From assembly GCA_029262475.1 (NCBI GenBank), contig JAJCZG010000122.1, positions 31,789 to 95,788 on the forward strand: a stretch of DNA of 64,000 nt. The letters run 5' to 3'. The notes under the pieces were generated by a model, which was given only the letters and a program-made list of their open reading frames with translations, had not been told where the DNA came from and searched no databases. This DNA is from Deltaproteobacteria bacterium. Lineage in GTDB: Bacteria > Desulfobacterota > GWC2-55-46 > JAJCZF01. This document shows, in pieces, positions 5,209 through 61,216 of the stretch (positions are counted from its first letter, which is position 1; each line of letters begins with the position of its first letter). The position numbers were made by a program, and so were the translations under genes.

Positions 5209-5334
5209 GCCCTCGTCACTATTATGACATTCACCTTGCCGATTCGACAGGATTACGTCGCGGTCACCCGAAGCTCTACCCTCGTTTTTTCCTAACCCCT
5301 CGTTTCAATTAGACAACTTTCATACTCTTTTCTT

Positions 5335-5350
5335 TGGCATAGTAGTTGCT
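5335..5350 (+). promoter_or_regulatory. Sigma54 (RpoN) -24/-12 promoter upstream of fliL: TGGCAT-N5-TTGCT
   Basis: TTTGGCATAGTAGTTGCTTTT matches the TGGCAC-N5-TTGCW consensus with exact GG/GC spacing, about 110 nt upstream of the fliL start. Confidence 0.6.
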
Positions 5351-24994: not shown

Positions 24995-25504
24995 ATGACT
25001 GAGATTGCCGAACAGAGTGTCGAAACCGCCGAGGATGACCTTCAGATAGTCACCTTTAAGATTGGAGATGAGGAGTTCTCCGTATCTATTTTGAAGGTCC
25101 AGGAGATAATTCGCATGAGCGCGATTACAAAGGTGCCGAAGTCCCCGGAGTTTGTTGAAGGCGTCATCAATCTCAGGGGCAGGGTAATACCGGTCCTCGA
25201 CTTGAGAAAACGCTTTGGACTTCCAATCATTGAGCGCGGCAACGACGCCAGGACAATAGTCGTGGATAGCGGCGGCAAGGTCGTAGGCCTTATAGTGGAC
25301 TCGGTAACGGAAGTCCTTCGCCTCCAGGCCTCCACGATAGAGCCACCCCCGGATATCGTAGGCGGCGGAGTGGATTCAGAGTACATAGATGGTGTAGGGA
25401 AGCTTGAGAACAGGCTTGTTATACTTCTTAACCTTGACAAGGTGCTCACTGTTAATGAGGGGACTCAACTGGATGGCATGGGTCTTGCTGTGAATAGTGA
25501 TTAA
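24995..25504 (+). CDS. cheW: Chemotaxis coupling protein CheW
   Basis: CheW domain (LQIVTFKIGDEEFSVSILKVQEIIRMSAITKVPKSPEFVEGVINLRGRVIPVLDLRKRFGL). Confidence 0.92.
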   Translation: MTEIAEQSVETAEDDLQIVTFKIGDEEFSVSILKVQEIIRMSAITKVPKSPEFVEGVINLRGRVIPVLDLRKRFGLPIIERGNDARTIVVDSGGKVVGLIVDSVTEVLRLQASTIEPPPDIVGGGVDSEYIDGVGKLENRLVILLNLDKVLTVNEGTQLDGMGLAVNSD

Positions 25505-25545
25505 GAGTCATAACTCAACCTTCGCTTTTGAAGGACAAGAATGTA

Positions 25546-25830
25546 ATGGTAGACGAGATATCAAGAATTGATACGAAGCTATTTCAAATAAAGACCGTAA
25601 AGAAGGTGCGTGAGGTATCTCCAAGGCCTGATGAACGAAGGCACGGCAGAGATACCTACAGCGAGTCGGATGAGATCGGCCTCTTAACCGAGGGCGATCA
25701 ATTAAGAAAGCGAAAGAATAGGCGGAGGCCGGCACCTAAAGTTACGGTTGAGAGCGACTCAAAGGATGAAGCTTTTGAGGATGAATCAAGGGACGATCAC
25801 GCTACCAGACACATTGATATAATAGTTTAA
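25546..25830 (+). CDS. Small, highly charged hypothetical protein downstream of cheW (about 94 aa, using ATG 25546; the ORF track has a TTG at 25528)
   Basis: ORF with an AAGGA ribosome-binding site 8 nt before ATG 25546. It ends just before a strong terminator. Low-complexity Arg/Lys/Glu/Asp-rich sequence with no recognisable domain. Confidence 0.35.
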   Translation: MVDEISRIDTKLFQIKTVKKVREVSPRPDERRHGRDTYSESDEIGLLTEGDQLRKRKNRRRPAPKVTVESDSKDEAFEDESRDDHATRHIDIIV

Positions 25831-26156: not shown

Positions 26157-26172
26157 TGGCACATTGATTGCA
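26157..26172 (+). promoter_or_regulatory. Sigma54 promoter upstream of flgF: TGGCAC-ATTGA-TTGCA
   Basis: Perfect match to the sigma54 -24/-12 consensus TGGCAC-N5-TTGCA, about 30 nt upstream of the flgF ATG. Coordinates are +/-2 nt. Confidence 0.7.
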
Positions 26173-30173: not shown

Positions 30174-31052
30174 ATGATCAAGATGGACGATATGATATCT
30201 AAGATAACAAACCCTTTTTCGAAGCTCAGCACCGGGGAAGGTGAGGCAAGTGCCATTCGCTCGACCAGAGATGGTGTGCACCCTGAGGTTGACGCAAAGC
30301 TTGAGAAGGCCGTAAGTGATTTCGAGTCAATATTTATCTATCAGATGCTCAAGGGTATGAGAAATAACGTCATGAAATCCGAGCTCTTCGGGGACGGCAA
30401 GACAGAGGAGATTTATACATCCATGCTCGACCAGGAGCTCTCGACGATTATGAGTAAGGATAAGGGAATGGGCTTAAAGGAGATGCTCTTAAGGCAGTTC
30501 AGCCCCGATACGCTAGGGAGCGATGCTACGAGGGGACTGCCGGGTGAGGAGGGGGAGAGAAGAATGCTCCCCGTAAAAAAGCCCGGTGCCGCTGCCATCA
30601 GGGAGTTCGAGGCGCATATGGACGCTCCTAAGGGCGCAGCCCCGGAAGCCTCGAAGATGGATACTAACTTTAAATCCCCGGTAAGAGGACGCATTTCTTC
30701 ACCTTACGGAATGAGGACGGACCCTTACACCGGAGAGTCGGCCTTTCATAAAGGCACGGATATTGCAGCTCCGGAAGGTACGCCTATTTACCCGACGATG
30801 GACGGCAAAGTGATATTTAGCGGTAAGAGGGGCGGCTACGGTAACGTTGTAGAGATAAAGCATGAGAACGGATATATTTCACGTTACGCTCATAACCGGA
30901 AAAACCTTGTAAACACTGGGGATCTGGTAAGCGTTAGAGAGAAGATAGCAGAAGTAGGAAGCTCCGGAAGGAGCACCGGCCCGCACCTCCACCTGGAGTT
31001 CAGGGTAGAAGGAATGGCCGTAAACCCTAACGAAATGGTGGACTTCGGTTAA
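30174..31052 (+). CDS. flgJ: FlgJ-like rod assembly protein: an N-terminal rod-binding domain fused to a C-terminal M23 (LytM) peptidase instead of a glucosaminidase
   Basis: Rod-binding motif (FESIFIYQMLKGMRN). M23 peptidase motifs (HKGTDIAAPEGTPIY...HLHLEF with the HxxxD / HxH zinc ligands). Confidence 0.75.
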   Translation: MIKMDDMISKITNPFSKLSTGEGEASAIRSTRDGVHPEVDAKLEKAVSDFESIFIYQMLKGMRNNVMKSELFGDGKTEEIYTSMLDQELSTIMSKDKGMGLKEMLLRQFSPDTLGSDATRGLPGEEGERRMLPVKKPGAAAIREFEAHMDAPKGAAPEASKMDTNFKSPVRGRISSPYGMRTDPYTGESAFHKGTDIAAPEGTPIYPTMDGKVIFSGKRGGYGNVVEIKHENGYISRYAHNRKNLVNTGDLVSVREKIAEVGSSGRSTGPHLHLEFRVEGMAVNPNEMVDFG

Positions 31053-31076
31053 AGTTATTCTTAGTGATGCCGATAT
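31050..31076 (+). promoter_or_regulatory. Sigma28 promoter for flgM: TAAA-N15-GCCGATAT, overlapping the flgJ stop codon
   Basis: TTAAAGTTATTCTTAGTGATGCCGATATAG is a near-perfect TAAA-N15-GCCGATAA, 125 nt upstream of flgM. Confidence 0.65.
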
Positions 31077-34556: not shown

Positions 34557-34650
34557 TAATGGCTGTAAATTAACCTTTAATAACGTAAAATTTTGAAAAA
34601 TCTTAGCTTTTAGCAAGATGCTTGAAAATTAATTTTGCCAGGAGGGCGTA

Positions 34651-34890
34651 ATGCTTGTATTGACAAGGAAGTCGGGACAAGGCATCTGGATTGGTGACGA
34701 TGTACGCGTAGTTGTGCTCGATGTGAAGGAAGGCCACGTAAGGCTTGGAATCGAGGCTTCGAGAACCACACCTATACATAGAGACGAAGTATATCAACGC
34801 ATTCAGGAGCAGAATAGAAGGAGTGCGGCAATGGTGCCGGCGAATCTTTTTGCCAATATTGGCAATATTAAAACGACGATAAAAAAATGA
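34651..34890 (+). CDS. csrA: Carbon storage regulator CsrA (RNA-binding translational repressor)
   Basis: MLVLTRKSGQGIWIGDDVRVVVLDVKEGHVRLGIEASRTTPIHRDEV is a CsrA signature. Confidence 0.92.
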   Translation: MLVLTRKSGQGIWIGDDVRVVVLDVKEGHVRLGIEASRTTPIHRDEVYQRIQEQNRRSAAMVPANLFANIGNIKTTIKK

Positions 34891-35384
34891 CCGATATGAT
34901 TAAAATAAAGACTTCCCGCTTTGGTGATATAGAGATTGCCGGGGATAAGGTAATCACTTTCCCCAATGCCATACCGGGCTTTGCTGGGCTAAAACGCTTT
35001 GTCTTGCTGGATCACGACGCCGAGGGTCTCTTCAAGTGGCTTCAGTCCGTCGATGACCCCGATCTTGCCTTCCTGCTCTCTCCGCCCAACTACTTTAAGG
35101 CCGAGTTCCGGCTCCCGGAGAAGGCCTATCCCATAACAAGGATAGACGTAAAGTCCCCGGATGAAGTGGTTGTGATGACGATGGTATGCGTTCCGCAAGA
35201 CGACAGCAGCCATTTTACGTTGAATTTTAAGGGGCCGATTGTATTTAACTACTCAAATATGATGGCTATACAGTATATTGTAGATACCGATGACCCTGAG
35301 TACCCGTGCGATTTCAGGGTGGATATCGTCAAAAGCGGGCAGGATGCAAATACCGGCTCCAGGAGCGCCACCGAAGAGCGCTGA
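34887..35384 (+). CDS. fliW: Flagellar assembly factor FliW (CsrA antagonist that binds flagellin)
   Basis: FliW motif (FGDIEIAGDKVITFPNAIPGFAGLKRFVLL). It overlaps the csrA stop codon. Confidence 0.88.
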   Translation: MTDMIKIKTSRFGDIEIAGDKVITFPNAIPGFAGLKRFVLLDHDAEGLFKWLQSVDDPDLAFLLSPPNYFKAEFRLPEKAYPITRIDVKSPDEVVVMTMVCVPQDDSSHFTLNFKGPIVFNYSNMMAIQYIVDTDDPEYPCDFRVDIVKSGQDANTGSRSATEER

Positions 35385-35390
35385 CACCAC

Positions 35391-35422
35391 GCTCCGGCTT
35401 CCTTGCCGGAGCGTTTGCCTTC
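35391..35422 (+). terminator. Possible weak terminator hairpin after fliW
   Basis: GCTCCGGC-ttccttg-CCGGAGC stem-loop followed by GTTTGCCTTCT. The U-tract is imperfect. Confidence 0.35.
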
Positions 35423-35437
35423 TAAATCTTTCATCTT

Positions 35438-35453
35438 CGGCACACTCCTTGCA
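35438..35453 (+). promoter_or_regulatory. Sigma54-type promoter upstream of pseB: cGGCAC-ACTCC-TTGCA
   Basis: GG and GC elements at the exact -24/-12 spacing (GGCAC-N5-TTGCA), about 90 nt upstream of the pseB ATG. Confidence 0.55.
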
Positions 35454-35543
35454 TTAATATAAATATTATTGTAAATTTCATTATAATAAGCTCGAGGCCA
35501 TCTATAGAGCCCGAGGCTTGTTAGTGGGGGGAGAGCTTTTAAT

Positions 35544-36527
35544 ATGGATCTTAACGGCAAGACAATACTCGTCACGGGCGGCACCGGTTCTTTTGGAAAG
35601 TTCTTTATAAAGAGCGTGCTTGAGAGGTTTTCCCCCAAACGACTTATCGTATTTAGCAGAGACGAGCTAAAACAGTTCGAGATGCAGCAGGAGTTTACAG
35701 ACCCGTCTCTTCGCTTTTTTATCGGGGACGTGAGGGATAAGGACAGACTCTACAGGGCATTCGACGGCGTAGATTACATAATCCACGCCGCAGCGCTTAA
35801 ACAGGTACCAGCCGCAGAATATAACCCATTCGAATTCATAAAGACCAATGTAATGGGGGCTCAGAATATCATCGACGTCGCCATAGATCTCGGCGTAAAG
35901 AAGGTGGTGGCTCTAAGCACCGATAAGGCCTGTAACCCCGCCAATCTCTACGGGGCGACTAAACTCTGTTCCGACAAGCTTTTTATCTCCGGCAACTCCT
36001 ATTCCGGAGAGAGTGGCGCGCGTTTTAGTGTAGTAAGATACGGAAACGTTGCCGGGAGCCGGGGAAGCGTGATACCCTTTTTCATGAAGATGAAGGAGAC
36101 GGGCATTCTCCCGATTACGGACGAACGCATGACGCGCTTCTGGATAACTCTTGAGGAGAGCGTAAACCTCGTCCTTCTGGCTATGGAGAAGATGTCGGGC
36201 GGCGAGATATTCGTCCCAAAAATTCCTTCTTCCACGGTCTTGGATATCGCCAAGGCGGTAAGCCCTGAGTCGAAGGTGGAGGTCGTAGGCATACGCCCTG
36301 GTGAAAAGCTCCACGAATCCCTCATCTCAACCGAGGAGGGAAGGATGACCTTCGAGTACGACGACTACTACATAATCCGCCCGAACTTTCCGTGGTGGAC
36401 CCTTAACGACCGATGTAAAGGCGGGCGCGAGGTAGATAAGGATTTTGTATATTCCAGCGACACAAATAGTAATTGGCTCTCCGTAGAAGATTTGCGCGAG
36501 ATGATTACAAAGGTAGCCTGTGGCTGA
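35544..36527 (+). CDS. pseB: UDP-GlcNAc 4,6-dehydratase (inverting) PseB/FlaA1
   Basis: N-terminus MDLNGKTILVTGGTGSFGKFFIKSVLERFSPKRLIVFSRDELKQ, and conservation throughout, typical of PseB. Confidence 0.9.
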   Translation: MDLNGKTILVTGGTGSFGKFFIKSVLERFSPKRLIVFSRDELKQFEMQQEFTDPSLRFFIGDVRDKDRLYRAFDGVDYIIHAAALKQVPAAEYNPFEFIKTNVMGAQNIIDVAIDLGVKKVVALSTDKACNPANLYGATKLCSDKLFISGNSYSGESGARFSVVRYGNVAGSRGSVIPFFMKMKETGILPITDERMTRFWITLEESVNLVLLAMEKMSGGEIFVPKIPSSTVLDIAKAVSPESKVEVVGIRPGEKLHESLISTEEGRMTFEYDDYYIIRPNFPWWTLNDRCKGGREVDKDFVYSSDTNSNWLSVEDLREMITKVACG

Positions 36528-37752
36528 TAAGAAGATATCATACGGACGGCAGTCGATAGACGAAACTGATATAGCCGCTGTAGCGAACTCGCTCTCATCC
36601 GACTTCCTTACGCAGGGCTCGGTTCAGGGGGAGTTCGAAGCGGCACTTGGCGAATATACAGGCGCAAAATACGCCGTTGTATGTTCATCGGGCAGCGCCG
36701 CTCTTCATCTCGCATATATGGCAGCCGGCCTTGGCGAGGGAGACGCGATAGTTACAACACCCAACACCTTTCTCGCAACACCCAATGCCGCTATACTTGC
36801 CGGTGCAAGACCTTTCTTTTCAGACATAGACCCGGAGACTCTAAATCTCTCGCTCGACCTTCTTGAAGACAATATCCCACGCTTACTAAAGAACGGAAGG
36901 TCGGTTAAGGCCGTAGTGCCGGTGCACTTCGCAGGTAATCCCGTGGATATGGAACGCCTCTCCGCAATTGCCGAAAAATTCGGCTTAATAGTAATCGAAG
37001 ACGCATGCCACGCCCTTGGAGCCGTATATTCCGGCACTAACGGCTCATCGGTTAAGGTCGGCTCGTCGAGAGACTCCGATATGACGGTATTTAGCTTCCA
37101 CCCCGTAAAATCCATTACAACGGGAGAAGGCGGGGCGATAACGACAAATAACCGCGACCTCTACGAAAGGCTTAAATGGCTCCGGTCGCACGGGGTTATA
37201 AGGGAGGCAGGTGAGTTCAAGTACGAGGATATCGCATCTTCGTCAACGACCCCGCCGCCCTGGTACCATGAGATGCATGAGCTTGGCCTTAATTACAGGT
37301 TAACCGACTTTCAGTGTGCCCTCGGGCTTAGCCAATTAAAGAAGCTCGACGGTTTTATCGGTAGAAGGGCGGAGATAAGCGAACTTTACGATACTTTATT
37401 TCGTTTTAGCGCCCCTATTACCCCGCCGCCGCGTCTGGTAAGGGGCACATCATCGCACCACCTCTATGTCATCCAAATCCCATTTGAAGAGATAGGCGTA
37501 GATAAGACCTTATGGTTTAACGATATGGCAGCCAGGGGGATAAACCTCCAGGTGCATTATATACCGGTTCACCTGCAGCCATACTACAGGGAGAGCTTCG
37601 GTTATGAGCCGGGCGACTTCCCGGCGGCTGAAAATTATTATAAACACGCGGTAAGTCTGCCGATATATCCTTCTCTTACCGATGAGGAGGTAGAAGAGAT
37701 TGCGCTTACAATTAAAAAAAGTTTAGGTATAGAGCCTTTCAGTAACTCATGA
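36520..37752 (+). CDS. pseC: DegT/DnrJ/EryC1-family PLP aminotransferase (PseC-like, for a UDP-4-keto-6-deoxy sugar)
   Basis: Family motifs (GRQSIDETDIAAV, FLTQG, a PLP-Lys region near SFHPVKSITTGEGG) and its position after pseB. Confidence 0.8.
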   Translation: MADKKISYGRQSIDETDIAAVANSLSSDFLTQGSVQGEFEAALGEYTGAKYAVVCSSGSAALHLAYMAAGLGEGDAIVTTPNTFLATPNAAILAGARPFFSDIDPETLNLSLDLLEDNIPRLLKNGRSVKAVVPVHFAGNPVDMERLSAIAEKFGLIVIEDACHALGAVYSGTNGSSVKVGSSRDSDMTVFSFHPVKSITTGEGGAITTNNRDLYERLKWLRSHGVIREAGEFKYEDIASSSTTPPPWYHEMHELGLNYRLTDFQCALGLSQLKKLDGFIGRRAEISELYDTLFRFSAPITPPPRLVRGTSSHHLYVIQIPFEEIGVDKTLWFNDMAARGINLQVHYIPVHLQPYYRESFGYEPGDFPAAENYYKHAVSLPIYPSLTDEEVEEIALTIKKSLGIEPFSNS

Positions 37753-38813
37753 AAAAGACCGCCATTATAGGTGTCGGAAGGGTAGCGGCACTCCTCGAAG
37801 ACGACAAGCTTCGTGAGAAACCGGCTACGCATATGGGCGCATACCTTGATTCTCCGGATTTTGAAGTCGTTGCCGCCGCTGATATCGACGCGGCGAGGCT
37901 TGCTACATTTGGAAAGCGCTACGGAATAAATAAACTCTATACCGATTATAGAGAGATGTTAAAGGAAGTAAGACCAGAGGTCGTGAGTATAGCCGCCTAC
38001 GCAACGGAACGCGCCGAGATGCTAAAGGCCGCGATACTTTCGGGCGTAAAGGGAATATGGTGCGAAAAGGCATTTGCCACATCCTTAGAGGAGGCCGACG
38101 AGATAGTAGCCCTTGCAAAAGAGCACGGGACGGTCATAACAGTATCTCATATGAGGCGCTGGAGCGCCGAACACATATTGGTCAAGGAACTCCTGGGTAG
38201 CGGAGCCATCGGGAGGCTCACTTCCATTTCAGCGTATTTCAGCGGAAGCCTCCTCCATACCGGCACTCACGCCTTCGACGTCCTCAGGTGGTTTGCCGGG
38301 GACGCATTATGGGTCGAGGGCTCGCTTGAGGGAGCCCCTGAGAGGTCAACCGAAGGCGATGAACCAGAGGAGAAAGACTTTTTGTGGTCTTTAGCTGGCG
38401 ACCCCGGCGGGCGCGCGGTTATTAGCTTCAAGGACGGTGTCTACGCCACTGTTCACGCGGAGTCTAAAAGCTATCTTCTCTTTGAATTCGACCTTATCGG
38501 CACCGAAGGCAGGATAAGGATAGGAAATAACGACGTACTTGAACTCTATACCCAGGGTGAAAGCCGCCATTACGAGGGAATAAGGGAACTGAGCCTTAGA
38601 GATTTTCCCGAGTTTAATAAAGCAAATATTTGGAGAGGTGCGGCGCGAAACCTCTCCGAGACAATCGACGGGCAGGCGACCAATATGAACCCGCCAGAGG
38701 ACGGGCGCGCGGCCCTGGAGCTGGCGCTGGCCATACATTTTTCTTCGTCTCTGGGAGGCCAAAGGGTACAACTGCCCCTTAAAGACCGATCCATTAAGGT
38801 CAACAGCAGATAA
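37749..38813 (+). CDS. Gfo/Idh/MocA-family NAD(P)-dependent oxidoreductase
   Basis: N-terminal Rossmann (KTAIIGVGRVAALLED) and a family C-terminal alpha/beta domain. The last roughly 14 codons lie inside tandem-repeat copy 1. Confidence 0.7.
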   Translation: MKKTAIIGVGRVAALLEDDKLREKPATHMGAYLDSPDFEVVAAADIDAARLATFGKRYGINKLYTDYREMLKEVRPEVVSIAAYATERAEMLKAAILSGVKGIWCEKAFATSLEEADEIVALAKEHGTVITVSHMRRWSAEHILVKELLGSGAIGRLTSISAYFSGSLLHTGTHAFDVLRWFAGDALWVEGSLEGAPERSTEGDEPEEKDFLWSLAGDPGGRAVISFKDGVYATVHAESKSYLLFEFDLIGTEGRIRIGNNDVLELYTQGESRHYEGIRELSLRDFPEFNKANIWRGAARNLSETIDGQATNMNPPEDGRAALELALAIHFSSSLGGQRVQLPLKDRSIKVNSR

Positions 38814-48720: not shown

Positions 48721-49651
48721 CATTTCCCTTAGAGAGGCTTTTGGCAGAGCTCTTGTAAAGGCCGGTGAGGAGCGAGAGGATTTTGTCGTCTTCGACGCCG
48801 ACGTCGCGGGAGGCACCTGCACCAATTTCTTTCGTGAGGCCTTTCCTGACAGGTTCTTTCAGTGCGGAATAGCAGAGCAAAATATGTTCTCTCTCGCGGC
48901 AGGGTTCTCGACTATGGGAATTACGCCCGTAGTTACCGCCTACGGAGTATTCGCGGCAATGCGCGCGATAGAGCAGGCGAGAAATTCCATAGCATACCCG
49001 AACTTTAACGTAAAGATAGTGGCAAGCCATTTAGGTTTGGACACCGGCCCGGACGGCCCGACGCACCAGTCGATGGAGGATATCGCCATATACCGTTCGA
49101 TAGCGAATTTTACGGTTCTGGCCCCCGGAGACCCGGTTGAGATGCCCGGCGCGGTAAGCGCGATGCTAAATCACAAAGGCCCTCTCTATATGAGGACAGG
49201 CAGGAGCCCTGTGCCGTCGGTCCTGGGCGGGGACGAGAGATTTGAGATCGGTAAGGGTAAGATAGTAAGAGCGGGCACCGATGTAGCGATTATCGCTACC
49301 GGCGTTATGCTCCACAGGGCCTACGGAGCGGCCACCATATTAGGTGAAGAGGGGATAGACGCGATGGTGGTCAATATGAGCTCGATTAAGCCCATAGACA
49401 GGGCGCTTATAATCGAGTGTGCCGAAAAGACAGGTGCGGTTGTTACGGCAGAGGACCATAACAGGTTCGGCGGGCTCGGGTCGGCCGTGGCAGAGATTTT
49501 AGCCGAGACCCTTCCGACCCCGATGAGAATGGTGGCGATAGACGACACCTTCGCAGAATCAGGCGAGCCTGCTCTGCTCGCCGAAAAATACGGAATATCA
49601 ATAGAAGATATAAGGCGCATGGCCAAAGAGGTGATAGATGCAAAGGCTTAA
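48713..49651 (+). CDS. Transketolase, C-terminal subunit
   Basis: FQCGIAEQNMFSLAAGFS...GPTHQSMEDIAIYRSI (transketolase pyrimidine-binding / C-terminal domains). Confidence 0.85.
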   Translation: MNDISLREAFGRALVKAGEEREDFVVFDADVAGGTCTNFFREAFPDRFFQCGIAEQNMFSLAAGFSTMGITPVVTAYGVFAAMRAIEQARNSIAYPNFNVKIVASHLGLDTGPDGPTHQSMEDIAIYRSIANFTVLAPGDPVEMPGAVSAMLNHKGPLYMRTGRSPVPSVLGGDERFEIGKGKIVRAGTDVAIIATGVMLHRAYGAATILGEEGIDAMVVNMSSIKPIDRALIIECAEKTGAVVTAEDHNRFGGLGSAVAEILAETLPTPMRMVAIDDTFAESGEPALLAEKYGISIEDIRRMAKEVIDAKA

Positions 49652-50372
49652 AGGTAAAGTTGCAGTCGTAACGGGAGCGAGCCGGGGCATAGGGTCAGGT
49701 ATTGCCAGAGCTTTTGCCAAAGAAGGCGCGTTAGTTGCCGTCTGTTACAACGAGGGCGTTAAAGGTGCTGATGCCGTAGTAAGTGAAATAGAAGCGTTAG
49801 GCGTCAAGGCCATCTCTGTAAGTCTCCCGGTTGAAGACCGAGGCGCTATAAAAAAAGCATTTAAAGAGATTACTTTCGAGCTTGGTCAGATAGATATACT
49901 CGTAAATAACGCAGGCATTAATATCCCAAACGACTTCGATAAAATTACAGACGCCGACTGGGAGAGGGTTTTGGGCGTTAACCTCACCGGCCCTTTCAAG
50001 GTGACGCAGGTTGCACTGCCGCATTTCACCGACGGCGGTTCCATAATAAATATATCTTCGGTGAGCGGACAGTACGGTGGGCCGAGAACGACCCACTACT
50101 GCGTATCAAAGGCCGGGCTTATTGCGCTTACTCAAAACCTGGCGATATTTTGCGCTAAAAGAAATATCCGCGTAAACGCAATCTCCCCGGGGCTTATCGC
50201 TTCGGATATGGCAGGGGCCGCCACCGGCCTCGGACTGGAAGAAAAGATACTTTTAAAAAAGATGGGCGAATATAAGGACGTAGCAGGAGCGGCGGTCTTT
50301 CTCGCATCCGATGAGTCGTCATACATTACCGGCCATACGCTAAATGTAAACGGAGGGCTTTATATTGGCTAA
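49638..50372 (+). CDS. Short-chain dehydrogenase/reductase (FabG-like SDR)
   Basis: TGASRGIGSGIA cofactor motif. NNAG. YxxxK catalytic motif (YCVSK). Confidence 0.85.
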   Translation: MQRLKGKVAVVTGASRGIGSGIARAFAKEGALVAVCYNEGVKGADAVVSEIEALGVKAISVSLPVEDRGAIKKAFKEITFELGQIDILVNNAGINIPNDFDKITDADWERVLGVNLTGPFKVTQVALPHFTDGGSIINISSVSGQYGGPRTTHYCVSKAGLIALTQNLAIFCAKRNIRVNAISPGLIASDMAGAATGLGLEEKILLKKMGEYKDVAGAAVFLASDESSYITGHTLNVNGGLYIG

Positions 50373-51591
50373 GGTCCTCATAATAATCGGCGCCGGCATT
50401 GAACAGGTGAGGGCCTATGAGGTCGCTAAAGCGATGGGCCTTAAGGTCGTTGGTACGGATATAAACCCCGACGCACCGGCATTTGAGTACGCCGACGGAG
50501 CTATAATCGCTAGTACAAGGGACCACGGCGAGACACTAAAGGCCGTTATAAATTATTTTTTCGAGAATAAGGATGACAAGGTAACAGGCGTCATGACTAT
50601 CGCTAACGACGTGCCGATGACGGTCGCGACAGTCGCCGAACACTTCGACCTGCCGGGGCTTCTCACAGACTCGGCTATCATTGCGTCGGATAAATTCCTT
50701 ATGAAGGAGAGCTTTAAATTCGACGGTGTTAAGACTTCAAAATTTTCCGAGGTCTCTTGCCATATCGAAATAATTGACGCTGCTGAGGCGTGGGGCTGGC
50801 CACTTGTGATAAAGCCCGTTGACGGACGAGGGGCGAGGGGGGTTTTATTAATAGACGAGTCTACCGACCTTAAATGGGCTTACAACGAGAGCCTCTCGTT
50901 TTCGACCGTCAAGCGCGTCATGGTTGAGAGCTTTCTCTCCGGGCCGCAGATAAGCACCGAGTCGATGATGATCGGCGGCAAGTGTTATACCCCGGCATAT
51001 TCCGATAGGAATTACAGCCGCCTCGATGAATTTATCCCGTACATGATAGAGGACGGAGGCACTATGCCAGCCCTCCTCTCCGAGGAAGAGAGAAGAGCCA
51101 TAAACGCCCTCGTCGAGAGCGGCGCTCTTGCAATGGGCATAACCGACGGCATAGTAAAGGGCGACATAGTCTTAACCGAAAAGGGGCCTGCGATAATAGA
51201 GCTTGCCGCAAGGCTTAGCGGAGGCTACTTCGCAACAGACCAGATACCGCTATCAACCGGCGTTGACATGGTTAGTGCAGCGGTTAAATATGCCGTGGGT
51301 GAGCCGTTAAAACCGGAGGATTTCACGCCTCTTTACTCAAGGGGCGCAGCTATTCGGTTCTTCTTTCCTCCCGAGGGAGTAATTGATGAAATTAAGGGAG
51401 CTAGGGAGCTCTCATCCATGCCGGGCGTACGAAGATCATCACTCTACCGGGCCGAGGGAGACGAGCAGCCGCAGGTCCGCGCCCACCCGGACAGGGCCGG
51501 TTTTGTGATAGCCGACGGTGTGGACCGCGGGGAAGCGCTTCAACGGGTCGAAGCTGCAATTGACTCCGTCATCTTCAAGGTAAAGCGTTAG
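50365..51591 (+). CDS. ATP-grasp domain ligase
   Basis: ATP-grasp fold motifs (WPLVIKPVDGRGARGVLLI). Pre-ATP-grasp N-domain. Confidence 0.7.
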   Translation: MAKVLIIIGAGIEQVRAYEVAKAMGLKVVGTDINPDAPAFEYADGAIIASTRDHGETLKAVINYFFENKDDKVTGVMTIANDVPMTVATVAEHFDLPGLLTDSAIIASDKFLMKESFKFDGVKTSKFSEVSCHIEIIDAAEAWGWPLVIKPVDGRGARGVLLIDESTDLKWAYNESLSFSTVKRVMVESFLSGPQISTESMMIGGKCYTPAYSDRNYSRLDEFIPYMIEDGGTMPALLSEEERRAINALVESGALAMGITDGIVKGDIVLTEKGPAIIELAARLSGGYFATDQIPLSTGVDMVSAAVKYAVGEPLKPEDFTPLYSRGAAIRFFFPPEGVIDEIKGARELSSMPGVRRSSLYRAEGDEQPQVRAHPDRAGFVIADGVDRGEALQRVEAAIDSVIFKVKR

Positions 51592-51602
51592 GCGCGCCTT
51601 AT

Positions 51603-53636
51603 ATGCCGATACTTAAACTCTACACACTCTTTCATCTAAACCTCGCCTTCTCTTCTATAGCCAGAGACGATTACGCTCGTCTTATCCGGGACGCTTACAC
51701 CCCGATACTCGACCTTGCTGAGCGTGGCACGCCCGTAGGAGTAGAGGCGACCGCCTGCACCCTGAGCGAAATAAAAAGAATTGACGAAGGTTTTATCGAG
51801 CGCCTTTCCTCATTATGTAACGACGGCAGGGCCGAATTCATAGGCTCGGGCCTTAGCCAGCTCATAATGCCGCTCGCCCCTGTCGAGGTGAACCGATGGA
51901 ACCTTGCGGCAGCGAACAAATACTATAGAGAGTTCCTCGGAACTACGCCGAAGACAGCACTTGTGAACGAACAGACATTCTCCGGCGCCCTGGTGGATCT
52001 CTACCTGGAGGCAGGTTATGAAACGCTCGTTATGGACTGGAATAACTCGGCCCGTTATAACTCATATCCAAAAGAGTACCTCTATTACCCGCAGAGGAGT
52101 GCTGGAAGGACGGGTGAGATTAACCTCCTCTGGAGCCACTCGATAGCCTTTCAGAAGTTTCAAAGATATATACACGGTATAATCACACTTGACGAGTATC
52201 TCGAATTCATAGAGTCGCAGAAGGGAGCGGCCGAGCTCGCCGCCTCCGATGGGTCGGTTCCAGGCTTCCCTCTCTACGGTAATGACGCCGAGGTCTTCGA
52301 CTTCAGGCCGGGCGGCGACGCACGCACCAGTTCTCTCGGTGAATGGGATAAGATAGCCGACCTCTACGAGATATTTAAGCGTGACGAGAGCGTCGAACTG
52401 GTGCTCCCCTCCGAATTTGTAAATAGTGTGATCTCATCACCAGGCCCCTCGGCCCTTAATACCGTAAGGCTTACTTCCCCCGAGACTCCGCTCCCGTGTA
52501 AGAAACAGAATAAATATAACCCCACCAGGTGGGCCGTGACGGGCAGAGATAGCGTCCATGTAAATACCCAGTGCTATAAGGCCCTCGGTAACATCCTGAA
52601 GCTCGAAGCCTCTATAAGTGACGAAGCCGCCGAAGCGCTACGCGAAAAACTATGCCTCCTCTGGGGAAGTGATTTTAGAACCAATACAACGGACGAAAAG
52701 CTCCGTGAGTTCCAAAACTCAATGGGGTGGCTCATGGTAGAGACCGAAAGGCTTCTGGCCTCTAATGTTAGCTCCAGAGAGGGCAACGCAGGGGCGGGCT
52801 CCACCGGTGCCGTAGCTAATGGTAAAGACTTCGCCAAGGCGAAGATAGAAACTGATAAGAAGATACTCTCCGTTGAGTGCCCCGGTATACGCGCTGAATT
52901 CCTCCTTACTAAAGGGCTCTCGATAAAATCGCTTACATTCCCGGAGTTAACGGATAAGCCTGTAATCGGAACACTCCCCCACGGTTACTTTGACGACATA
53001 CACCTCGGGGCAGACTTCTTTAGCGGGCACTTCATAAATGTCCAGCGCGACGGGCGTAAGGTTACAGACCTCTCTACAGTAGAGCCAGGTATCCATGACG
53101 GGCCGGAGAGCGTAACGATCTCTGCGGCTATACCGATGGAGACGGGTAATCTATTAAAGACATTTACGCTTCATAAGGGCAAACCTCGTCTTGAAATAAA
53201 TTACAGGCTTAAGCTCGACGGGCTGGCCGCGTCAAGTCTTAGGCTCGCAATACTATCATTTTTCCCTACGGCCTTTAATAAGGAAAGTCTCTGGTACGAG
53301 TCCGTAAACGGCGGCGATGAGCCGGAGAGGTTCTACCTGCTGGGCAAGAGCGTTAAACACGACGAAGCGGTTAGCTCTACCGTAAGCGCATCTAGCTGCC
53401 TTGGCGCTACCGACGGCTCCGTCGTGATCGGTGACGATGATATTGCTGTGAGGATATCGAGCGACAGGTCAGAGCTCTTTTCGGCACCGTTATTGCATTA
53501 TTTTGAGACAGACGACAAGTATTTTCTACGCCTCTCGCATTCTATCGGCGAAGTCGACGACACGGCCTTCTGGGTCTGGAGGGGTATTAACACTATAGGT
53601 TTTACGATAGAACCAGTACTGAAGAGTGATAAGTGA
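51603..53636 (+). CDS. Large hypothetical protein with a GH57-like (glycoside hydrolase family 57 / DUF1957-type) N-terminal domain
   Basis: N-terminal LFHLNLAFSSI...NEQTF...EAGYETLVMDWNNS resembles the GH57 (beta/alpha)7 barrel region. No other motifs recognised. Confidence 0.3.
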   Translation: MPILKLYTLFHLNLAFSSIARDDYARLIRDAYTPILDLAERGTPVGVEATACTLSEIKRIDEGFIERLSSLCNDGRAEFIGSGLSQLIMPLAPVEVNRWNLAAANKYYREFLGTTPKTALVNEQTFSGALVDLYLEAGYETLVMDWNNSARYNSYPKEYLYYPQRSAGRTGEINLLWSHSIAFQKFQRYIHGIITLDEYLEFIESQKGAAELAASDGSVPGFPLYGNDAEVFDFRPGGDARTSSLGEWDKIADLYEIFKRDESVELVLPSEFVNSVISSPGPSALNTVRLTSPETPLPCKKQNKYNPTRWAVTGRDSVHVNTQCYKALGNILKLEASISDEAAEALREKLCLLWGSDFRTNTTDEKLREFQNSMGWLMVETERLLASNVSSREGNAGAGSTGAVANGKDFAKAKIETDKKILSVECPGIRAEFLLTKGLSIKSLTFPELTDKPVIGTLPHGYFDDIHLGADFFSGHFINVQRDGRKVTDLSTVEPGIHDGPESVTISAAIPMETGNLLKTFTLHKGKPRLEINYRLKLDGLAASSLRLAILSFFPTAFNKESLWYESVNGGDEPERFYLLGKSVKHDEAVSSTVSASSCLGATDGSVVIGDDDIAVRISSDRSELFSAPLLHYFETDDKYFLRLSHSIGEVDDTAFWVWRGINTIGFTIEPVLKSDK

Positions 53637-55549
53637 CTGAAATATTTAATAAAAACATAAAAGCTTTAAGGAAGAAGAACCCGGCACTTGCCGAGCTCCT
53701 CTCAACCGTTGATGCAGAAGAGATTGTAGTTGAGGAAGCAAAGGCAGGGGAGAAGACCTTTACCTTCAAGGGCAAGTATTTTCATAGCCGCTATGACCCT
53801 GTTACCGAGGCCAAGCGGAGCGTCGAGCTCATTATGAAGAAGAAGCGCGACTGGATCCTGGTCTTTGGTCTCGGTTTCGGGTATGTGCCAAGTCTGCTCC
53901 TCGAAGAAGAGATCTATTCCGTTATGATCTATGAGCCAAGCCCGGGTCTCCTGCGCTCGATACTGGAGTCCGTAGATATGACCGGCCTTATAAGATCAGC
54001 CTCGGTTAAGTTTACTACGAGCCTGGATGATGTTAGAAAACTGGTGGACCAGAAGACCGACGGAGTTGAGGACATAGTCCAGTTCCAGACCGCGCCGTAT
54101 AAGAATACATTCGAAAAGGAGTTCATGGACTTCGCCTTTACGGTAAATAACGCCTACTCCAAGAGGAGGCTAAATATCAATACGCTCGTCTATTCTTCAA
54201 AGAGCTGGCTGGAGAATTATCTTGAGAATGTGTCGTCTCTTATCGAGAGTCCGACGATAGACGTCTTGAAGGATCAATTCGCAGGCTTGCCGACATTAAT
54301 AGTAGGCGCGGGGCCGTCCCTTGAGAAGAACGCTCACCTCATAAAAGAGGTAAAGGGCAAGGCCCTCATTGTCGCCGCTATCTCGGCGTATCGCCCTCTT
54401 TTGAAGTTCGGCGTAGTGCCGGACCTTGTGATATCGGCCGAGAAGGTCGCCCTCTCGACATTTTTCGCCAATGGTAAGGAGGACGAAGAGGTACGCCTCC
54501 TCCTGGCCGAGGTATCTAATCCGACCCTCTATACGGAGAGGAAGGTGAGGGAGAGGTATACTTATTTCTGCACCTATAACACCCTCTCCCGCGAGCACGC
54601 GGCCTTTTGGGGGAGCAGTTACTTTCCGGGCGGGAGCGGCAGCGTATCGACTACCGCACTCGATATAGCCCTCTATGCGGGCGCAAGCCCGGTTATACTC
54701 CTTGGTCAAGACCTCTCTTATTCAAACAATAAGACGCATGTTACAGGGAGCGTCTACGGAGAGCAAAAGCTGGAGTTCGGAAGAAACGGCGTTAATATTA
54801 AGGAGCAGGAGGTATATACCGCAGAGCCTATCGAAAGAAAAGGCGACCTCCTCTGGGTTGACGGTATGGACGGGAAGCTGATCCCGAGCTGCGCGGCCTG
54901 GGTAACGGTCCTTCAGTGGTTCGAAGATTACAGTGAGAGAATTAGTGGACAGGAGAATCCTCCGGTTCTTATAAATTCCTCCGAAGGCGCGGCGGCTATA
55001 AAGGGTTATGAGAATATGCCCTTCTCCGCAGTCATAGAAAAGTATTTTAATAATAGCGACGAGCGCACTGAAAGCAGTGCCGTGGAGGAGGCGTTCCGAA
55101 GGGTTGATAACACCTCCGTTGATGTCGATTGGCAGGCCCTCTACAACTCCTTTGATATCTTCTTTGTTTCACTCGGGAAGATCGAAAAGATCGCCGACCA
55201 AATAGTTAGTAAGGCTAAAAAGCTAAGGAAAACTATAGAATCGTCGGGGCTTTCGCCGGAGCTCCTTAGCGCGACAAGAAAGATAAGGGGCCTTGAGAAG
55301 AAGCTCTTCAAGATTGTAAAGGACGCCCTCTTCCTCCTTGAAGCCCTGGCGGCCCTGGACCATGCCCTGAAGCTCCAGCAGAAGAATGAAGAGCTAATTG
55401 AGGACGATAAGGAGCAGGCGTTAAAAGATTTAAAACACGTTATTCAGACCTACAGCGTAGTTGCCGTTAACGCCAGACACTTCATAAAACTTATAAAAGA
55501 GGCGAGAAGAAGCACCGAAGAGAAGCTTAAGGGCGTCGCCGCGATTTAA
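53633..55549 (+). CDS. maf: Motility accessory factor (Maf, DUF115/MptE-like): a putative flagellin nonulosonic-acid glycosyltransferase
   Basis: Maf-type N-terminus (IFNKNIKALRKKNPALAELL). Central DUF115 motif (LIVGAGPSL...VPDLVISAEK). The size (about 640 aa) and position next to pse genes and flagellin also fit. Confidence 0.75.
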   Translation: MTEIFNKNIKALRKKNPALAELLSTVDAEEIVVEEAKAGEKTFTFKGKYFHSRYDPVTEAKRSVELIMKKKRDWILVFGLGFGYVPSLLLEEEIYSVMIYEPSPGLLRSILESVDMTGLIRSASVKFTTSLDDVRKLVDQKTDGVEDIVQFQTAPYKNTFEKEFMDFAFTVNNAYSKRRLNINTLVYSSKSWLENYLENVSSLIESPTIDVLKDQFAGLPTLIVGAGPSLEKNAHLIKEVKGKALIVAAISAYRPLLKFGVVPDLVISAEKVALSTFFANGKEDEEVRLLLAEVSNPTLYTERKVRERYTYFCTYNTLSREHAAFWGSSYFPGGSGSVSTTALDIALYAGASPVILLGQDLSYSNNKTHVTGSVYGEQKLEFGRNGVNIKEQEVYTAEPIERKGDLLWVDGMDGKLIPSCAAWVTVLQWFEDYSERISGQENPPVLINSSEGAAAIKGYENMPFSAVIEKYFNNSDERTESSAVEEAFRRVDNTSVDVDWQALYNSFDIFFVSLGKIEKIADQIVSKAKKLRKTIESSGLSPELLSATRKIRGLEKKLFKIVKDALFLLEALAALDHALKLQQKNEELIEDDKEQALKDLKHVIQTYSVVAVNARHFIKLIKEARRSTEEKLKGVAAI

Positions 55550-56220: not shown

Positions 56221-56248
56221 TAAAGTTTAACCTCAATCTACCGATAAA
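56221..56248 (+). promoter_or_regulatory. Sigma28 promoter of flagellin gene 1: TAAAGTTT-N-aCCGATAA
   Basis: TAAA-N15-ACCGATAA, the same sequence type as the cheW promoter, 180 nt upstream of the flagellin ATG. Confidence 0.65.
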
Positions 56249-56428: not shown

Positions 56429-57256
56429 ATGGGACTCGTAATCAACACCAATATAGCATCACTTATTGCCCAGCAAAATCTTAATATATCCAATAAGCAG
56501 TTAAAACTGAGCGTACAGAGACTTAGCTCCGGCTACAGGGTCAACAGCGCGGCCGATGACGCCGCCGGTATGGCGAGGGCAAGCCTGTTACGCTCCAATT
56601 CGCGTGGAATTCAAGCCGCATTAAGGAATTCCAATGACGGTATAAGTGCGCTCGAAATAGCCGATCAGAGCTCGGCTAAGATCGGCGACATCCTTACGAG
56701 GATGAACGAGCTTGCCGTCAGCGCCTCACAGGGCACACTCGATACCGAGACGAGGGGATACTACCACCTTGAGTGGGCTGAGCTTGTTAAGGAGATAGAC
56801 CGAATAGCCAATGTTACCGAATTCGACGGTAAAAAGTTGCTAGCTTCGGGTATCACTGTTGATATCCAGATCGGTTTCAGAAGCTCCGCAGACGACAGGC
56901 TCACGATGACAATGGGAAAGATGATTGCCAGCACTCTCGGCCTTAACGCCACAGCAGCCGGCCTGAGCGCTCTAACAAGAGCACAGTCCGCAATGGGGCT
57001 GATAAAGACAGCCATAAAGAGCATCAACGGAACACGCGCCAGATTCGGTGCGTTTACTAACAGGCTCGACGCGACCATCTCCAACCTGCAGGTTACATTC
57101 ACCAATATTCAGGCGGCTGAAAGTAGGATAAGAGATGCTGACTTCGCGCACGAGACAGCGCTATTTACCAAGAATCAGATACTGGTACAGTCGGGAGTCT
57201 CCGTCTTGGCACAGGCCAATACGCTTCCGCAGGCTGCGCTGACACTGCTACAATAG
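56429..57256 (+). CDS. fliC: Flagellin (short, about 275 aa, D0/D1 only)
   Basis: MGLVINTNIASLIAQQNLNISNKQLKLSVQRLSSGYRVNSAADDAAGMA...C-terminal LVQSGVSVLAQANTLPQAALTLLQ. Confidence 0.95.
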   Translation: MGLVINTNIASLIAQQNLNISNKQLKLSVQRLSSGYRVNSAADDAAGMARASLLRSNSRGIQAALRNSNDGISALEIADQSSAKIGDILTRMNELAVSASQGTLDTETRGYYHLEWAELVKEIDRIANVTEFDGKKLLASGITVDIQIGFRSSADDRLTMTMGKMIASTLGLNATAAGLSALTRAQSAMGLIKTAIKSINGTRARFGAFTNRLDATISNLQVTFTNIQAAESRIRDADFAHETALFTKNQILVQSGVSVLAQANTLPQAALTLLQ

Positions 57257-60147: not shown

Positions 60148-60174
60148 TAAAGAAAACTTAAAGTAGTCCGATAT
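60148..60174 (+). promoter_or_regulatory. Sigma28-like promoter for flagellin gene 2: TAAA-N15-tCCGATAT
   Basis: CTAAAGAAAACTTAAAGTAGTCCGATATAAC, about 215 nt upstream of the ATG and preceded by an A-rich tract. Confidence 0.45.
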
Positions 60175-60361: not shown

Positions 60362-60388
60362 AAGTTAACTATGGAAGGAGAAATTACT

Positions 60389-61216
60389 ATGGGAGTAGTA
60401 ATCAATACCAACGTAGCATCACTAGTAGCACAGAATAACCTTTTTACAAATAACAAGGCACTAGCAGTAAACGTACAAAGACTCTCTTCAGGTTACAGGG
60501 TCAACAGCTCCGCAGATGACGCCTCAGGGCTTGCCAGGGCCGATCAGCTCAGGGCCAGCTCCAGAGGTGTACAGGCAGCACTCCGGAACGCAAACGACGG
60601 TATAAGCGCCCTTGAGATAGCCGATAAGAGCGCCCAGAAGATAAGCGAACTCCTCACGAGGATGTCTGAGCTTGCCGTTACCGCGTCTCAGGGTACTCTC
60701 GATACGAACTCCAGAACTTATATCCAGGACGAGTTCTCAAACCTGAGGGACGAAATATCTCGAATAGCCGAGGTTACCGAGTTCGATGGTAAAAAGCTTC
60801 TCGCCTCCGGTATCTCGATTAATATTCAGGTCGGGTTTAGAAACAACGCCAACAACCGAATGACTGTGACCATGGGTAATTTGAAGACTACCAATCTCGG
60901 TATCCAGGCATCTAAAGCATCTGTTGCCGCTCTGACAGGTGCGCAGAGAGCTATCAGCGTCATCGGTGCTGCTCTTACTACGCTTAATTCACAGAGAGCG
61001 CGTTTCGGTTCGTACACCAACAGGCTGGATGCGACGATATCCAACCTGCAGGTAACGTACACGAACTTCCAGGCCGCCGAAAGTAGAATCAGGGACCTGG
61101 ATTTTGCTCAAGAGACGGCTTCATTTACCAGGAACCAGATACTCGTTCAATCGGGTGTGTCTGTCCTGGCGCAGGCTAATACCCTGCCTCAGTCGGCCCT
61201 TTCGCTCATCGGTTAG
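60389..61216 (+). CDS. fliC: Flagellin paralogue 2 (start at MGVVINTN; the ORF track starts 18 nt earlier)
   Basis: MGVVINTNVASLVAQNNL...QRLSSGYRVNSSADDASGLARA...C-terminal LVQSGVSVLAQANTLPQSALSLIG. Confidence 0.92.
   Translation: MGVVINTNVASLVAQNNLFTNNKALAVNVQRLSSGYRVNSSADDASGLARADQLRASSRGVQAALRNANDGISALEIADKSAQKISELLTRMSELAVTASQGTLDTNSRTYIQDEFSNLRDEISRIAEVTEFDGKKLLASGISINIQVGFRNNANNRMTVTMGNLKTTNLGIQASKASVAALTGAQRAISVIGAALTTLNSQRARFGSYTNRLDATISNLQVTYTNFQAAESRIRDLDFAQETASFTRNQILVQSGVSVLAQANTLPQSALSLIG

Follow-up and report, generated by a model that had tools for sequence, protein, structure and literature searches.

Experimental knowledge of sigma-54 (RpoN) control over the first flagellin-glycan genes comes so far only from Campylobacter and, for the maf gene, from Helicobacter. 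In Campylobacter jejuni, the primary transcription start of Cj1293 (pseB), as mapped by dRNA-seq, lies directly behind GGAACACTTATTGCT, a GGAAC-N5-TTGCT element, at 11 nt past the C of the GC element, and leaves a 5' untranslated region (UTR) of 26 nt (PMC3656092, supplement). Two transcriptome studies grouped pseB and pseC of this organism with the class II flagellar genes (PMC5403827, PMC10470494), and its pseB 5'UTR was found to be one of the strongest CsrA targets (PMC4894983). In Helicobacter pylori, maf (jhp0106) is RpoN dependent via the flaB promoter, as part of a flaB-jhp0106 operon; in a csrA mutant, pseB-pseI expression was not markedly changed and only jhp0106 fell (PMC5368276).

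Sigma-54 promoters of flagellar operons have also been cataloged in Desulfovibrio vulgaris, which has 19 sigma-54 flagellar operons (PMC4641369). The flagellar operons of D. vulgaris and Geobacter sulfurreducens carry TGGCAC-N5-TTGC promoters and are associated with FlrA/FleQ-like and FlrC-like activators, and yGTCA-N6-TGACr is the site proposed for FlrA/FleQ-like regulators in Desulfovibrio (PMC4641369). At many of the D. vulgaris promoters no activator site could be detected, or the sites are located 3' of the promoter; activators that bind downstream or act independently of an enhancer are known for flagellar promoters (PMC4641369). In Caulobacter crescentus, components of flagellin glycosylation are expressed before flagellin secretion becomes possible (PMC7591256).

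Here, we describe an element at positions 35438-35453 of a flagellar region from an uncultured bacterium labeled Deltaproteobacteria, located between fliW and pseB, which most likely acts as a functional RpoN promoter that starts transcription of pseB and pseC.

Gene content of the flagellar region and sugar island

The window, that is, the entire stretch of 64,000 nucleotides analyzed, is one flagellar and chemotaxis region with all genes on the + strand. Gene order starts with fliK, flgD, flgE, fliL-M-N-O-P-R, flhB, flhA, flhF, flhG, and fliA, continues with the che genes, motAB, flgF, flgG, flgA, flgH, flgI, and a FlgJ-like M23 protein, proceeds to flgM, flgN, flgK, flgL, csrA, fliW, and the sugar island, and ends with two flagellin genes together with flaG, fliD, and fliS. 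Neither rpoN nor a gene with a Sigma54_activat match was detected among the proteins of the 64-kb window, so the sigma-54 machinery is assumed herein.

The second-to-last gene of the flgM-flgN-flgK-flgL-csrA-fliW block is csrA (34651-34890, +), which matched NCBIfam CsrA NF002469 with 80.7 bits (cutoff, 73). It is followed by fliW (34887-35384, +), identified by NCBIfam FliW models at E values of 1e-29 to 1e-33, below the curated cutoffs in every case, and by Pfam PF02623 on an identical protein. Beyond the intergenic gap, pseB (35544-36527, +; NCBIfam PseB TIGR03589, 530.6 bits versus a cutoff of 407.75) and pseC (36520-37752, +; NCBIfam PseC TIGR03588, 472.5 bits versus 423.5) overlap by 8 nt, both exceeding the curated equivalog cutoffs. 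We also observed an 86-nt run (34633-34718) that is invariant in the window and in its two closest relatives, L083 and L086, and is by far the longest such run in the flgL-pseB stretch. It spans the ribosome-binding site and first codons of csrA, includes ACAAGGAAG and GACAAGGCA, and may represent a CsrA autoregulatory site or another RNA-level constraint.

The rest of the sugar island (37749-53636, +) consists of closely packed genes recognized by profile matches, bringing its total to approximately 20 kb from pseB to maf. Its core comprises a Gfo/Idh oxidoreductase, a NeuB/PseI-like synthase, a cytidylyltransferase-like gene, and a PseG-like gene. These are followed by tailoring genes (40943-53636) for two methyltransferases, a sulfotransferase, two B12-binding radical-SAM enzymes, a split transketolase, a FabG-like reductase, an ATP-grasp ligase, and a GH57-like protein, a set that is unusual for a flagellin nonulosonate. 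The final gene, maf (motility-associated factor, of the flagellin glycosyltransferase family; 53633-55549, +), was assigned by Pfam PF01973 (MptE-like, E 1.7e-34), and the source records of its homologues carry the name "motility associated factor glycosyltransferase." The synthase scored under both cutoffs (NeuB, 338 versus 400; PseI, 298 versus 340), as did the PseG-like gene (89 versus 154) and the PseF-like gene (27 versus 206) under theirs, and no PseH equivalog was recognized among the window proteins. Because the synthase, PseG-like, and cytidylyltransferase-like genes fall under the Pse equivalog cutoffs, the island product is probably a modified, perhaps heavily modified, Pse-type nonulosonic acid, with Pse5Ac7Ac not proven.

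No convincing intergenic terminator was found within the island, and sigma-70-like matches there were at chance level; one long island transcript with internal boosters is plausible. A 78-nt unit is present in 2.7 tandem copies at 38772-38983 (83% match, TRF score 298), a stretch that takes in the last part of the Gfo/Idh oxidoreductase ORF as well as the ribosome-binding site and leader of the NeuB/PseI-like gene. Within every unit, a GACCG...CGGTC hairpin precedes GAGGTTTTTATAT, and an ATG closes only the last unit; L083 has two copies.

A sigma-54-type element between fliW and pseB

The 159-nt gap from the fliW stop (35384) to the pseB ATG (35544) holds a sigma-54 -24/-12 element, cGGCAC-ACTCC-TTGCA (cGGCACACTCCTTGCA), at 35438-35453 on the + strand. 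Its letters are C at 35438, GGCAC at 35439-35443, ACTCC at 35444-35448, and TTGCA at 35449-35453, which puts GG at 35439-35440 and GC at 35451-35452 with the canonical GG-N10-GC spacing. It matches the consensus TGGCAC-N5-TTGCW at 15 of 16 positions, the sole mismatch being C for the first T, and lies in non-coding DNA, facing pseB, with 91 nt from the motif end to the ATG. The GGCAC-N5-TTGCA motif with correct spacing that the initial annotation had reported between fliW and pseB was hence confirmed at this position.

The 64-kb window contained four exact GGCAC-N5-TTGCW matches where 0.18 would be expected; all four lie on the gene strand (+), and none of 100 shuffles reached this count. Allowing up to one mismatch to TGGCAY-N5-TTGCW, there were seven matches in the window (2.24 expected; seven was reached by no shuffle), six of them on the + strand, which bears all window genes. 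Two further sites of the form TGGCAT-N5-TTGCT were present in the window, one being the site before fliL. At up to two mismatches the enrichment was gone (20 matches versus 17.4 expected in the window), and therefore only near-perfect sigma-54 matches are informative. Chance is an unlikely explanation of the element at 35438-35453.

Hairpin, predicted start, and leader in the fliW-pseB gap

A GC-rich, terminator-like hairpin (35389-35414, +; ACGCTCCGGC / GCCGGAGCGT, with a 6-nt loop) follows the fliW stop and ends 24 nt before the element. Its arms, at 35389-35398 and 35405-35414, form a 10-bp stem with 100% complementarity, and the fold was calculated at -21.7 kcal/mol (z = -6.5). The sequence after the stem is TTTGCCTTCT, such that the hairpin has the GC-rich stem-loop of a Rho-independent terminator and no proper U-tract, and it passed a terminator scan only at a loose setting, via a shorter 5-bp stem. 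A terminator-like hairpin ahead of the motif had likewise been part of the initial annotation; its stem is real, and the U-tract is missing. L083 retains the stem by paired changes (CTCTCCGGC...GCCGGAGAG) and has CCGGTTCCGG, with no T-run, 3' of it; in L086 the stem is not clearly retained. Because the hairpin has no U-tract, the sigma-28 flgM-fliW operon could be read through into pseB, and such read-through, if present, would blur the separation between regulatory tiers.

From the usual sigma-54 geometry, we infer a transcription start near 35464 (35463-35465, +), 11-13 nt past the C of the GC element. The block around it, TTAAATATTATT, is invariant in the three closest genomes. A palindrome around the predicted start (TTGCATTAATAT / ATATTATTGTAA) was rejected, being absent from L083. 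The resulting pseB leader of ~80 nt (35464-35543, +) would be AT-rich at first, followed by a weak stem-loop and the Shine-Dalgarno sequence GGGGAGAG; in most relatives this leader is only ~25-30 nt. Folding of the predicted leader was not significant in the window, L083, or L086 (z of -0.9 to -1.6), and a conserved attenuator was dropped as a candidate for this reason. Rfam returned no match in the whole window at gathering scores, and on 35350-35600 at E<=1 it returned only sxy (E 0.39, 20 bits versus 70); as no family was recovered, the leader is no known riboswitch.

Other flagellar promoter motifs in the window

Matching sigma-54 motifs precede fliL (TGGCATAGTAGTTGCT, 5335-5350, +), after a strong terminator, and flgF (TGGCACATTGATTGCA, 26157-26172, +), after another terminator and 28 nt before the probable flgF ATG (26200). 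The sigma-28 pattern TAAA-N16-CCGATAW had five matches in the 64-kb window versus 0.06 expected: before cheW, before flgM, before each flagellin gene, and one intragenic on the minus strand. The match before flgM (TAAAGTTA-N11-GCCGATAT, 31050-31076, +) likely serves as promoter for the flgM-fliW block, at the end of which the hairpin lies, and those before the first (56429-57256) and second (60371-61216) flagellin genes lie at 56221-56247 and 60148-60174, respectively, both on the + strand. The minus-strand match at 44029-44055 (TAAATGAGCCACGGTTAGAGCCGATAT), inside a methyltransferase-like ORF, is either chance or an antisense promoter.

The best sigma-54 motifs sit where operons begin. Taken with the sigma-28 sites, they make the division into sigma-54 and sigma-28 classes correct at the motif level, and the sites at 56221 and 60148 bear out, at that same level, the earlier claim that the flagellin genes are sigma-28 driven. 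The same annotation had put pseB in one tier with fliL and flgF and had suggested searching upstream for enhancer-binding-protein sites. Matching sigma-54 motifs at 5335 and 26157 agree with the former; a common tier is not established, and different activators may act, because fliL alone has an FlrA/FleQ-type GTCA-N6-TGAC site upstream. This site, GTCACTATTATGAC at 5215-5228, fits yGTCA-N6-TGACr and is located 107 nt 5' of the fliL motif; no other GTCA-N6-TGAC inverted repeat occurs in the window (0.43 expected by chance), and none is present near pseB. Nor was any k-mer common to at least three of the four candidate sigma-54 promoters between -260 and +80. The lack of an upstream activator site at pseB is no argument against the promoter, because many flagellar sigma-54 promoters of D. 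vulgaris are likewise without one.

Conservation of the element in related fliW-pseB loci

Metagenome assemblies were the only source of identical pseB and fliW, and the genomes nearest to the window are metagenome-assembled genomes (MAGs) labeled Deltaproteobacteria. L083 and L086, the closest relatives, encode FliW proteins 86% and 84% identical to that of the window, and alignment of their gaps revealed that the element is retained, as TTCGGCACACTCCTTGCAT in L083 and GTGGCATACTCTTTGCAT in L086. The 60 nt between hairpin and motif, which contain indels, had a three-way identity of 0.3-0.45; for the motif together with the start region (the TTAAATATTATT block), this value was 0.7-0.8.

A metagenome scan that used the single FliW protein as query recovered no relatives, and relatives were recovered when the scan was repeated with a FliW alignment. 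All 15 loci from the latter scan with pseB directly 3' of fliW (FliW 45-50% identical to that of the window) bear TGGCAC, TGGCAT, or TGGTAT followed by N5-TTGCA on the coding strand. The distance from motif to pseB ATG in these distant loci was 49-56 nt, or ~100 nt in three, with an overall range of 49-106 nt. When all fliW-pseB loci were pooled, 18 of 24 gaps had TGGYAY-N5-TTGCA in the coding orientation. The 6.5 kb of gap sequence contained 19 coding-strand matches and none on the opposite strand; at the frequency seen in the other 210 kb of these loci, 0.28 would be expected. Because the loci are phylogenetically related, this ratio overstates the number of independent events, but the sequences that surround the motif are highly diverse: the N5 spacers and flanks vary, and GG and TTGC are fixed. 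Fixed GG and TTGC with drifting spacer and flanks is the pattern that would be expected of a sigma-54 promoter, and the promoter proposed in the initial annotation is supported, at the level of sequence comparison, by the 18 of 24 syntenic loci and by the footprint in L083 and L086.

Six of the 24 syntenic loci have no sigma-54 motif (L003, L087, L089, L090, L092, and L094). In L003, whose PseB is the closest relative of the window's (77% identical), fliW and pseB are ~10 nt apart and must for that reason be co-transcribed. L087 has a gap of 137 nt with no motif match, and in L089, L090, and L092, AT-rich, promoter-like sequence comes after a real terminator. The gap of L094 contains TGGTAT-N10-TTGT, which looks like a decayed copy of the motif. 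Since six syntenic relatives lack it, the promoter is dispensable in some lineages.

About half of the motif-bearing relatives have, in addition, a sigma-28-like element (TAAA or TCAA, 14-16 nt, and a CCGATAW-like sequence), which ends ~10-15 nt 5' of the sigma-54 -24 element in L004, L005, L103, L106, L107, and L108-L110. The presence of both elements suggests tandem late and middle promoters for pseB in these relatives. No sigma-28-like element was found in the fliW-pseB gap of the window, L083, or L086, and the sigma-54 element is the only recognizable promoter in the window's gap. Because sigma-28-like elements are present in some relatives and the sigma-54 motif is missing from others, the promoter makeup of the fliW-pseB junction varies by lineage, and assignment of pseB to a tier is therefore lineage specific.

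Across 80 pseB loci from diverse bacteria, sigma-54-like sites with up to two mismatches were rare, numbering eight on the coding strand and four on the other, such that the motif is tied to the fliW-pseB arrangement and not to pseB generally. In a still more remote relative (L125/L126; Maf 40% identical), from which pseB is absent, TGGCATATAAGTTGCA follows fliW and precedes a small ORF, a Gfo/Idh oxidoreductase, and maf. The order of fliW, putative sigma-54 element, flagellin-glycosylation genes, and sigma-28 flagellin genes is thus a recurring layout.

A second element before maf

A second sigma-54-like element, cGGCAC-CGTTA-TTGCA (cGGCACCGTTATTGCA), is an exact match at 53482-53497 (+), 150 nt ahead of maf and within the 3'-terminal part of the GH57-like gene. 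Around it, a run of 26 nt (53478-53503) is invariant in the window, L095, and L096, and adjoining codons carry synonymous changes. We consider the element a probable internal sigma-54 promoter for maf, and grade it no higher because this run is the joint fifth longest invariant run, not the first, in 12.7 kb of aligned island. The longest in the same three-genome alignment is a 39-nt run at 44445-44483, inside the methyltransferase-like ORF at 43710-44948; it contains TGGAGAGAATATTGCAT, which has GG-N10-GC spacing and three mismatches to the sigma-54 consensus.

Elsewhere in the window, the exact GGCAC-N5-TTGCA at 30752-30767 (AGGCACGGATATTGCA) falls within the M23 peptidase domain of the FlgJ-like gene, in codons for HKGTDIAAP, and is followed at 31050 by the sigma-28 motif before flgM; it is treated here as most likely a coding coincidence. 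At the very end of cheW, TGGCATGGGTCTTGCT (25474-25489) lies ~55 nt before an unannotated ORF (25528-25830) of ~95-100 amino acids, rich in charged residues, with no Pfam match and a strong terminator after it, and this stretch (25474-25830) may be a further small sigma-54 unit.

Discussion

The conserved element between fliW and pseB is best explained as a standard sigma-54 promoter. Sigma-54 holoenzyme would bind the -24 GG and -12 GC of the element as a closed complex. Opening of that complex would fall to an ATP-hydrolyzing (AAA+) enhancer-binding protein that belongs to the flagellar cascade and has its gene beyond the window. Transcription would then start near 35464 and yield an RNA with the ~80-nt leader, pseB, pseC, and the downstream nonulosonic-acid genes, giving the glycan-donor pathway its own entry point, distinct from the sigma-28 promoters that serve flgM-fliW and the flagellin genes. 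Expression of maf, which encodes the transferase, would be raised by the less strongly supported element at 53482. That the promoter needs RpoN and an activator, how far its transcript extends, and when it is made relative to flagellin expression are points that we infer.

Were the motif unused, the island would be read mainly from the sigma-28 promoter at 31050 through flgM-flgN-flgK-flgL-csrA-fliW, and the hairpin would serve as an RNA-stability or processing element. Several observations are in keeping with this: TTTGCCTTCT occupies the place of a U-run after the hairpin, L083 is without any T-run, and the ~10 nt between fliW and pseB in L003 make co-transcription there certain. A precedent reportedly exists in C. 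jejuni, where Goon et al. are said to have described in 2003 both a sigma-54 promoter for Cj1293 and a polycistronic sigma-70 transcript reading through from the upstream gene. We nevertheless judge exclusive read-through improbable, as it leaves unexplained the coding-strand TGGYAY-N5-TTGCA in 18 of 24 gaps amid changing surroundings. A dedicated promoter and read-through can, moreover, coexist.

It is still less probable that pseB is transcribed from a sigma-70 promoter in the AT-rich stretch (either with TATAAT at ~35484-35489 as -10, or as TTGCAT-N17-TAAATT) and that the sigma-54 match is a by-product. The TATAAT hexamer is perfect and lies 55 nt before the pseB ATG, and in L089, L090, and L092, which have no sigma-54 motif, the AT-rich sequence after a real terminator is promoter-like. 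However, a consensus scan of 35385-35544 on the + strand detected no sigma-70-type site, TATAAT being without an acceptable -35; the hexamer reads TTTAAT in L083 and TTTAAG in L086; and distant relatives that have the sigma-54 element have unrelated sequence at that distance. Recognition of TGGCA...TTGCA by another DNA-binding regulator, or a role for it as an RNA-level element of the pseB leader, appears very improbable indeed and has nothing specific in its favor. The sites bear the signature of sigma-54, with fixed GG and TTGC, a free N5 spacer, and fixed strand and gene distance, and no Rfam family matched. The same pattern stands before fliL and flgF, genes that are sigma-54 dependent in other polar flagellates. 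We therefore retain the sigma-54 promoter as the preferred reading of the element.

A broader proposal, which we regard as unlikely, is that the junction of csrA-fliW, promoter, and pseB forms a conserved checkpoint module of an uncultured deltaproteobacterial clade. Its promoter would consist of sigma-54 alone, the arrangement of the window, or in tandem with the sigma-28-like element, the arrangement of about half of the relatives, and the pseB leader would be repressed by the neighboring CsrA and relieved by FliW, with the lineage of the window having lost the sigma-28 part and gained an 80-nt leader with extra regulatory sites. If true, synthesis of the nonulosonate donor would be coupled both to a finished hook-basal body and to flagellin export status.

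The pseB sigma-54 promoter, as we read it, is real but of a type already known from C. jejuni; it is no new kind of regulation, and the general understanding of flagellar regulation is unchanged by it. Its presence indicates that sigma-54 control of the first flagellin-glycan genes is probably a conserved design that extends to an uncultured lineage labeled Deltaproteobacteria. What is added is that, in an uncultured clade, the promoter holds a fixed position directly after csrA-fliW, and that promoters turn over at this one junction, which has sigma-54 only, a sigma-28-like element plus sigma-54, neither, or direct coupling to fliW. For this lineage, the promoter set at the motif level comprises sigma-54 sites for fliL, flgF, pseB, and perhaps maf, and sigma-28 sites for cheW, flgM, and the flagellins.

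As in C. jejuni, a sigma-54 -24/-12 element lies directly before pseB-pseC, the major flagellin is sigma-28 driven (here as judged by motifs), and csrA and fliW belong to the same regulatory circuit. The two differ in motif, which is of the general TGGCAC type here and of the epsilonproteobacterial GGAAC type in C. jejuni, and in leader length, with ~80 nt predicted here versus 26 nt. Unlike in C. jejuni, pseB adjoins csrA-fliW and is the first gene of an uninterrupted 20-kb island with maf as its last, and the host is an uncultured bacterium labeled Deltaproteobacteria. The adjacency of csrA and fliW to pseB is of interest in view of the strong CsrA targeting of the C. jejuni pseB 5'UTR. As in H. 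pylori, maf may be under sigma-54 here, as suggested by the conserved sigma-54-like element 150 nt before this gene; the candidate here differs in lying inside a sugar-modification gene and in being conserved across three genomes only, with weaker support.

The same motif as in D. vulgaris and G. sulfurreducens precedes fliL and flgF in the window, and one yGTCA-N6-TGACr site precedes the fliL promoter; unlike here, neither glycosylation nor pseudaminic acid genes feature in the main text on those organisms (PMC4641369). In Caulobacter, timing is a matter of cell-cycle regulation, RpoN does not figure in the main text, and the transferase, FlmG, is of another type (PMC7591256), but the principle of a glycan supply that precedes flagellin is one that the layout of the window would share.
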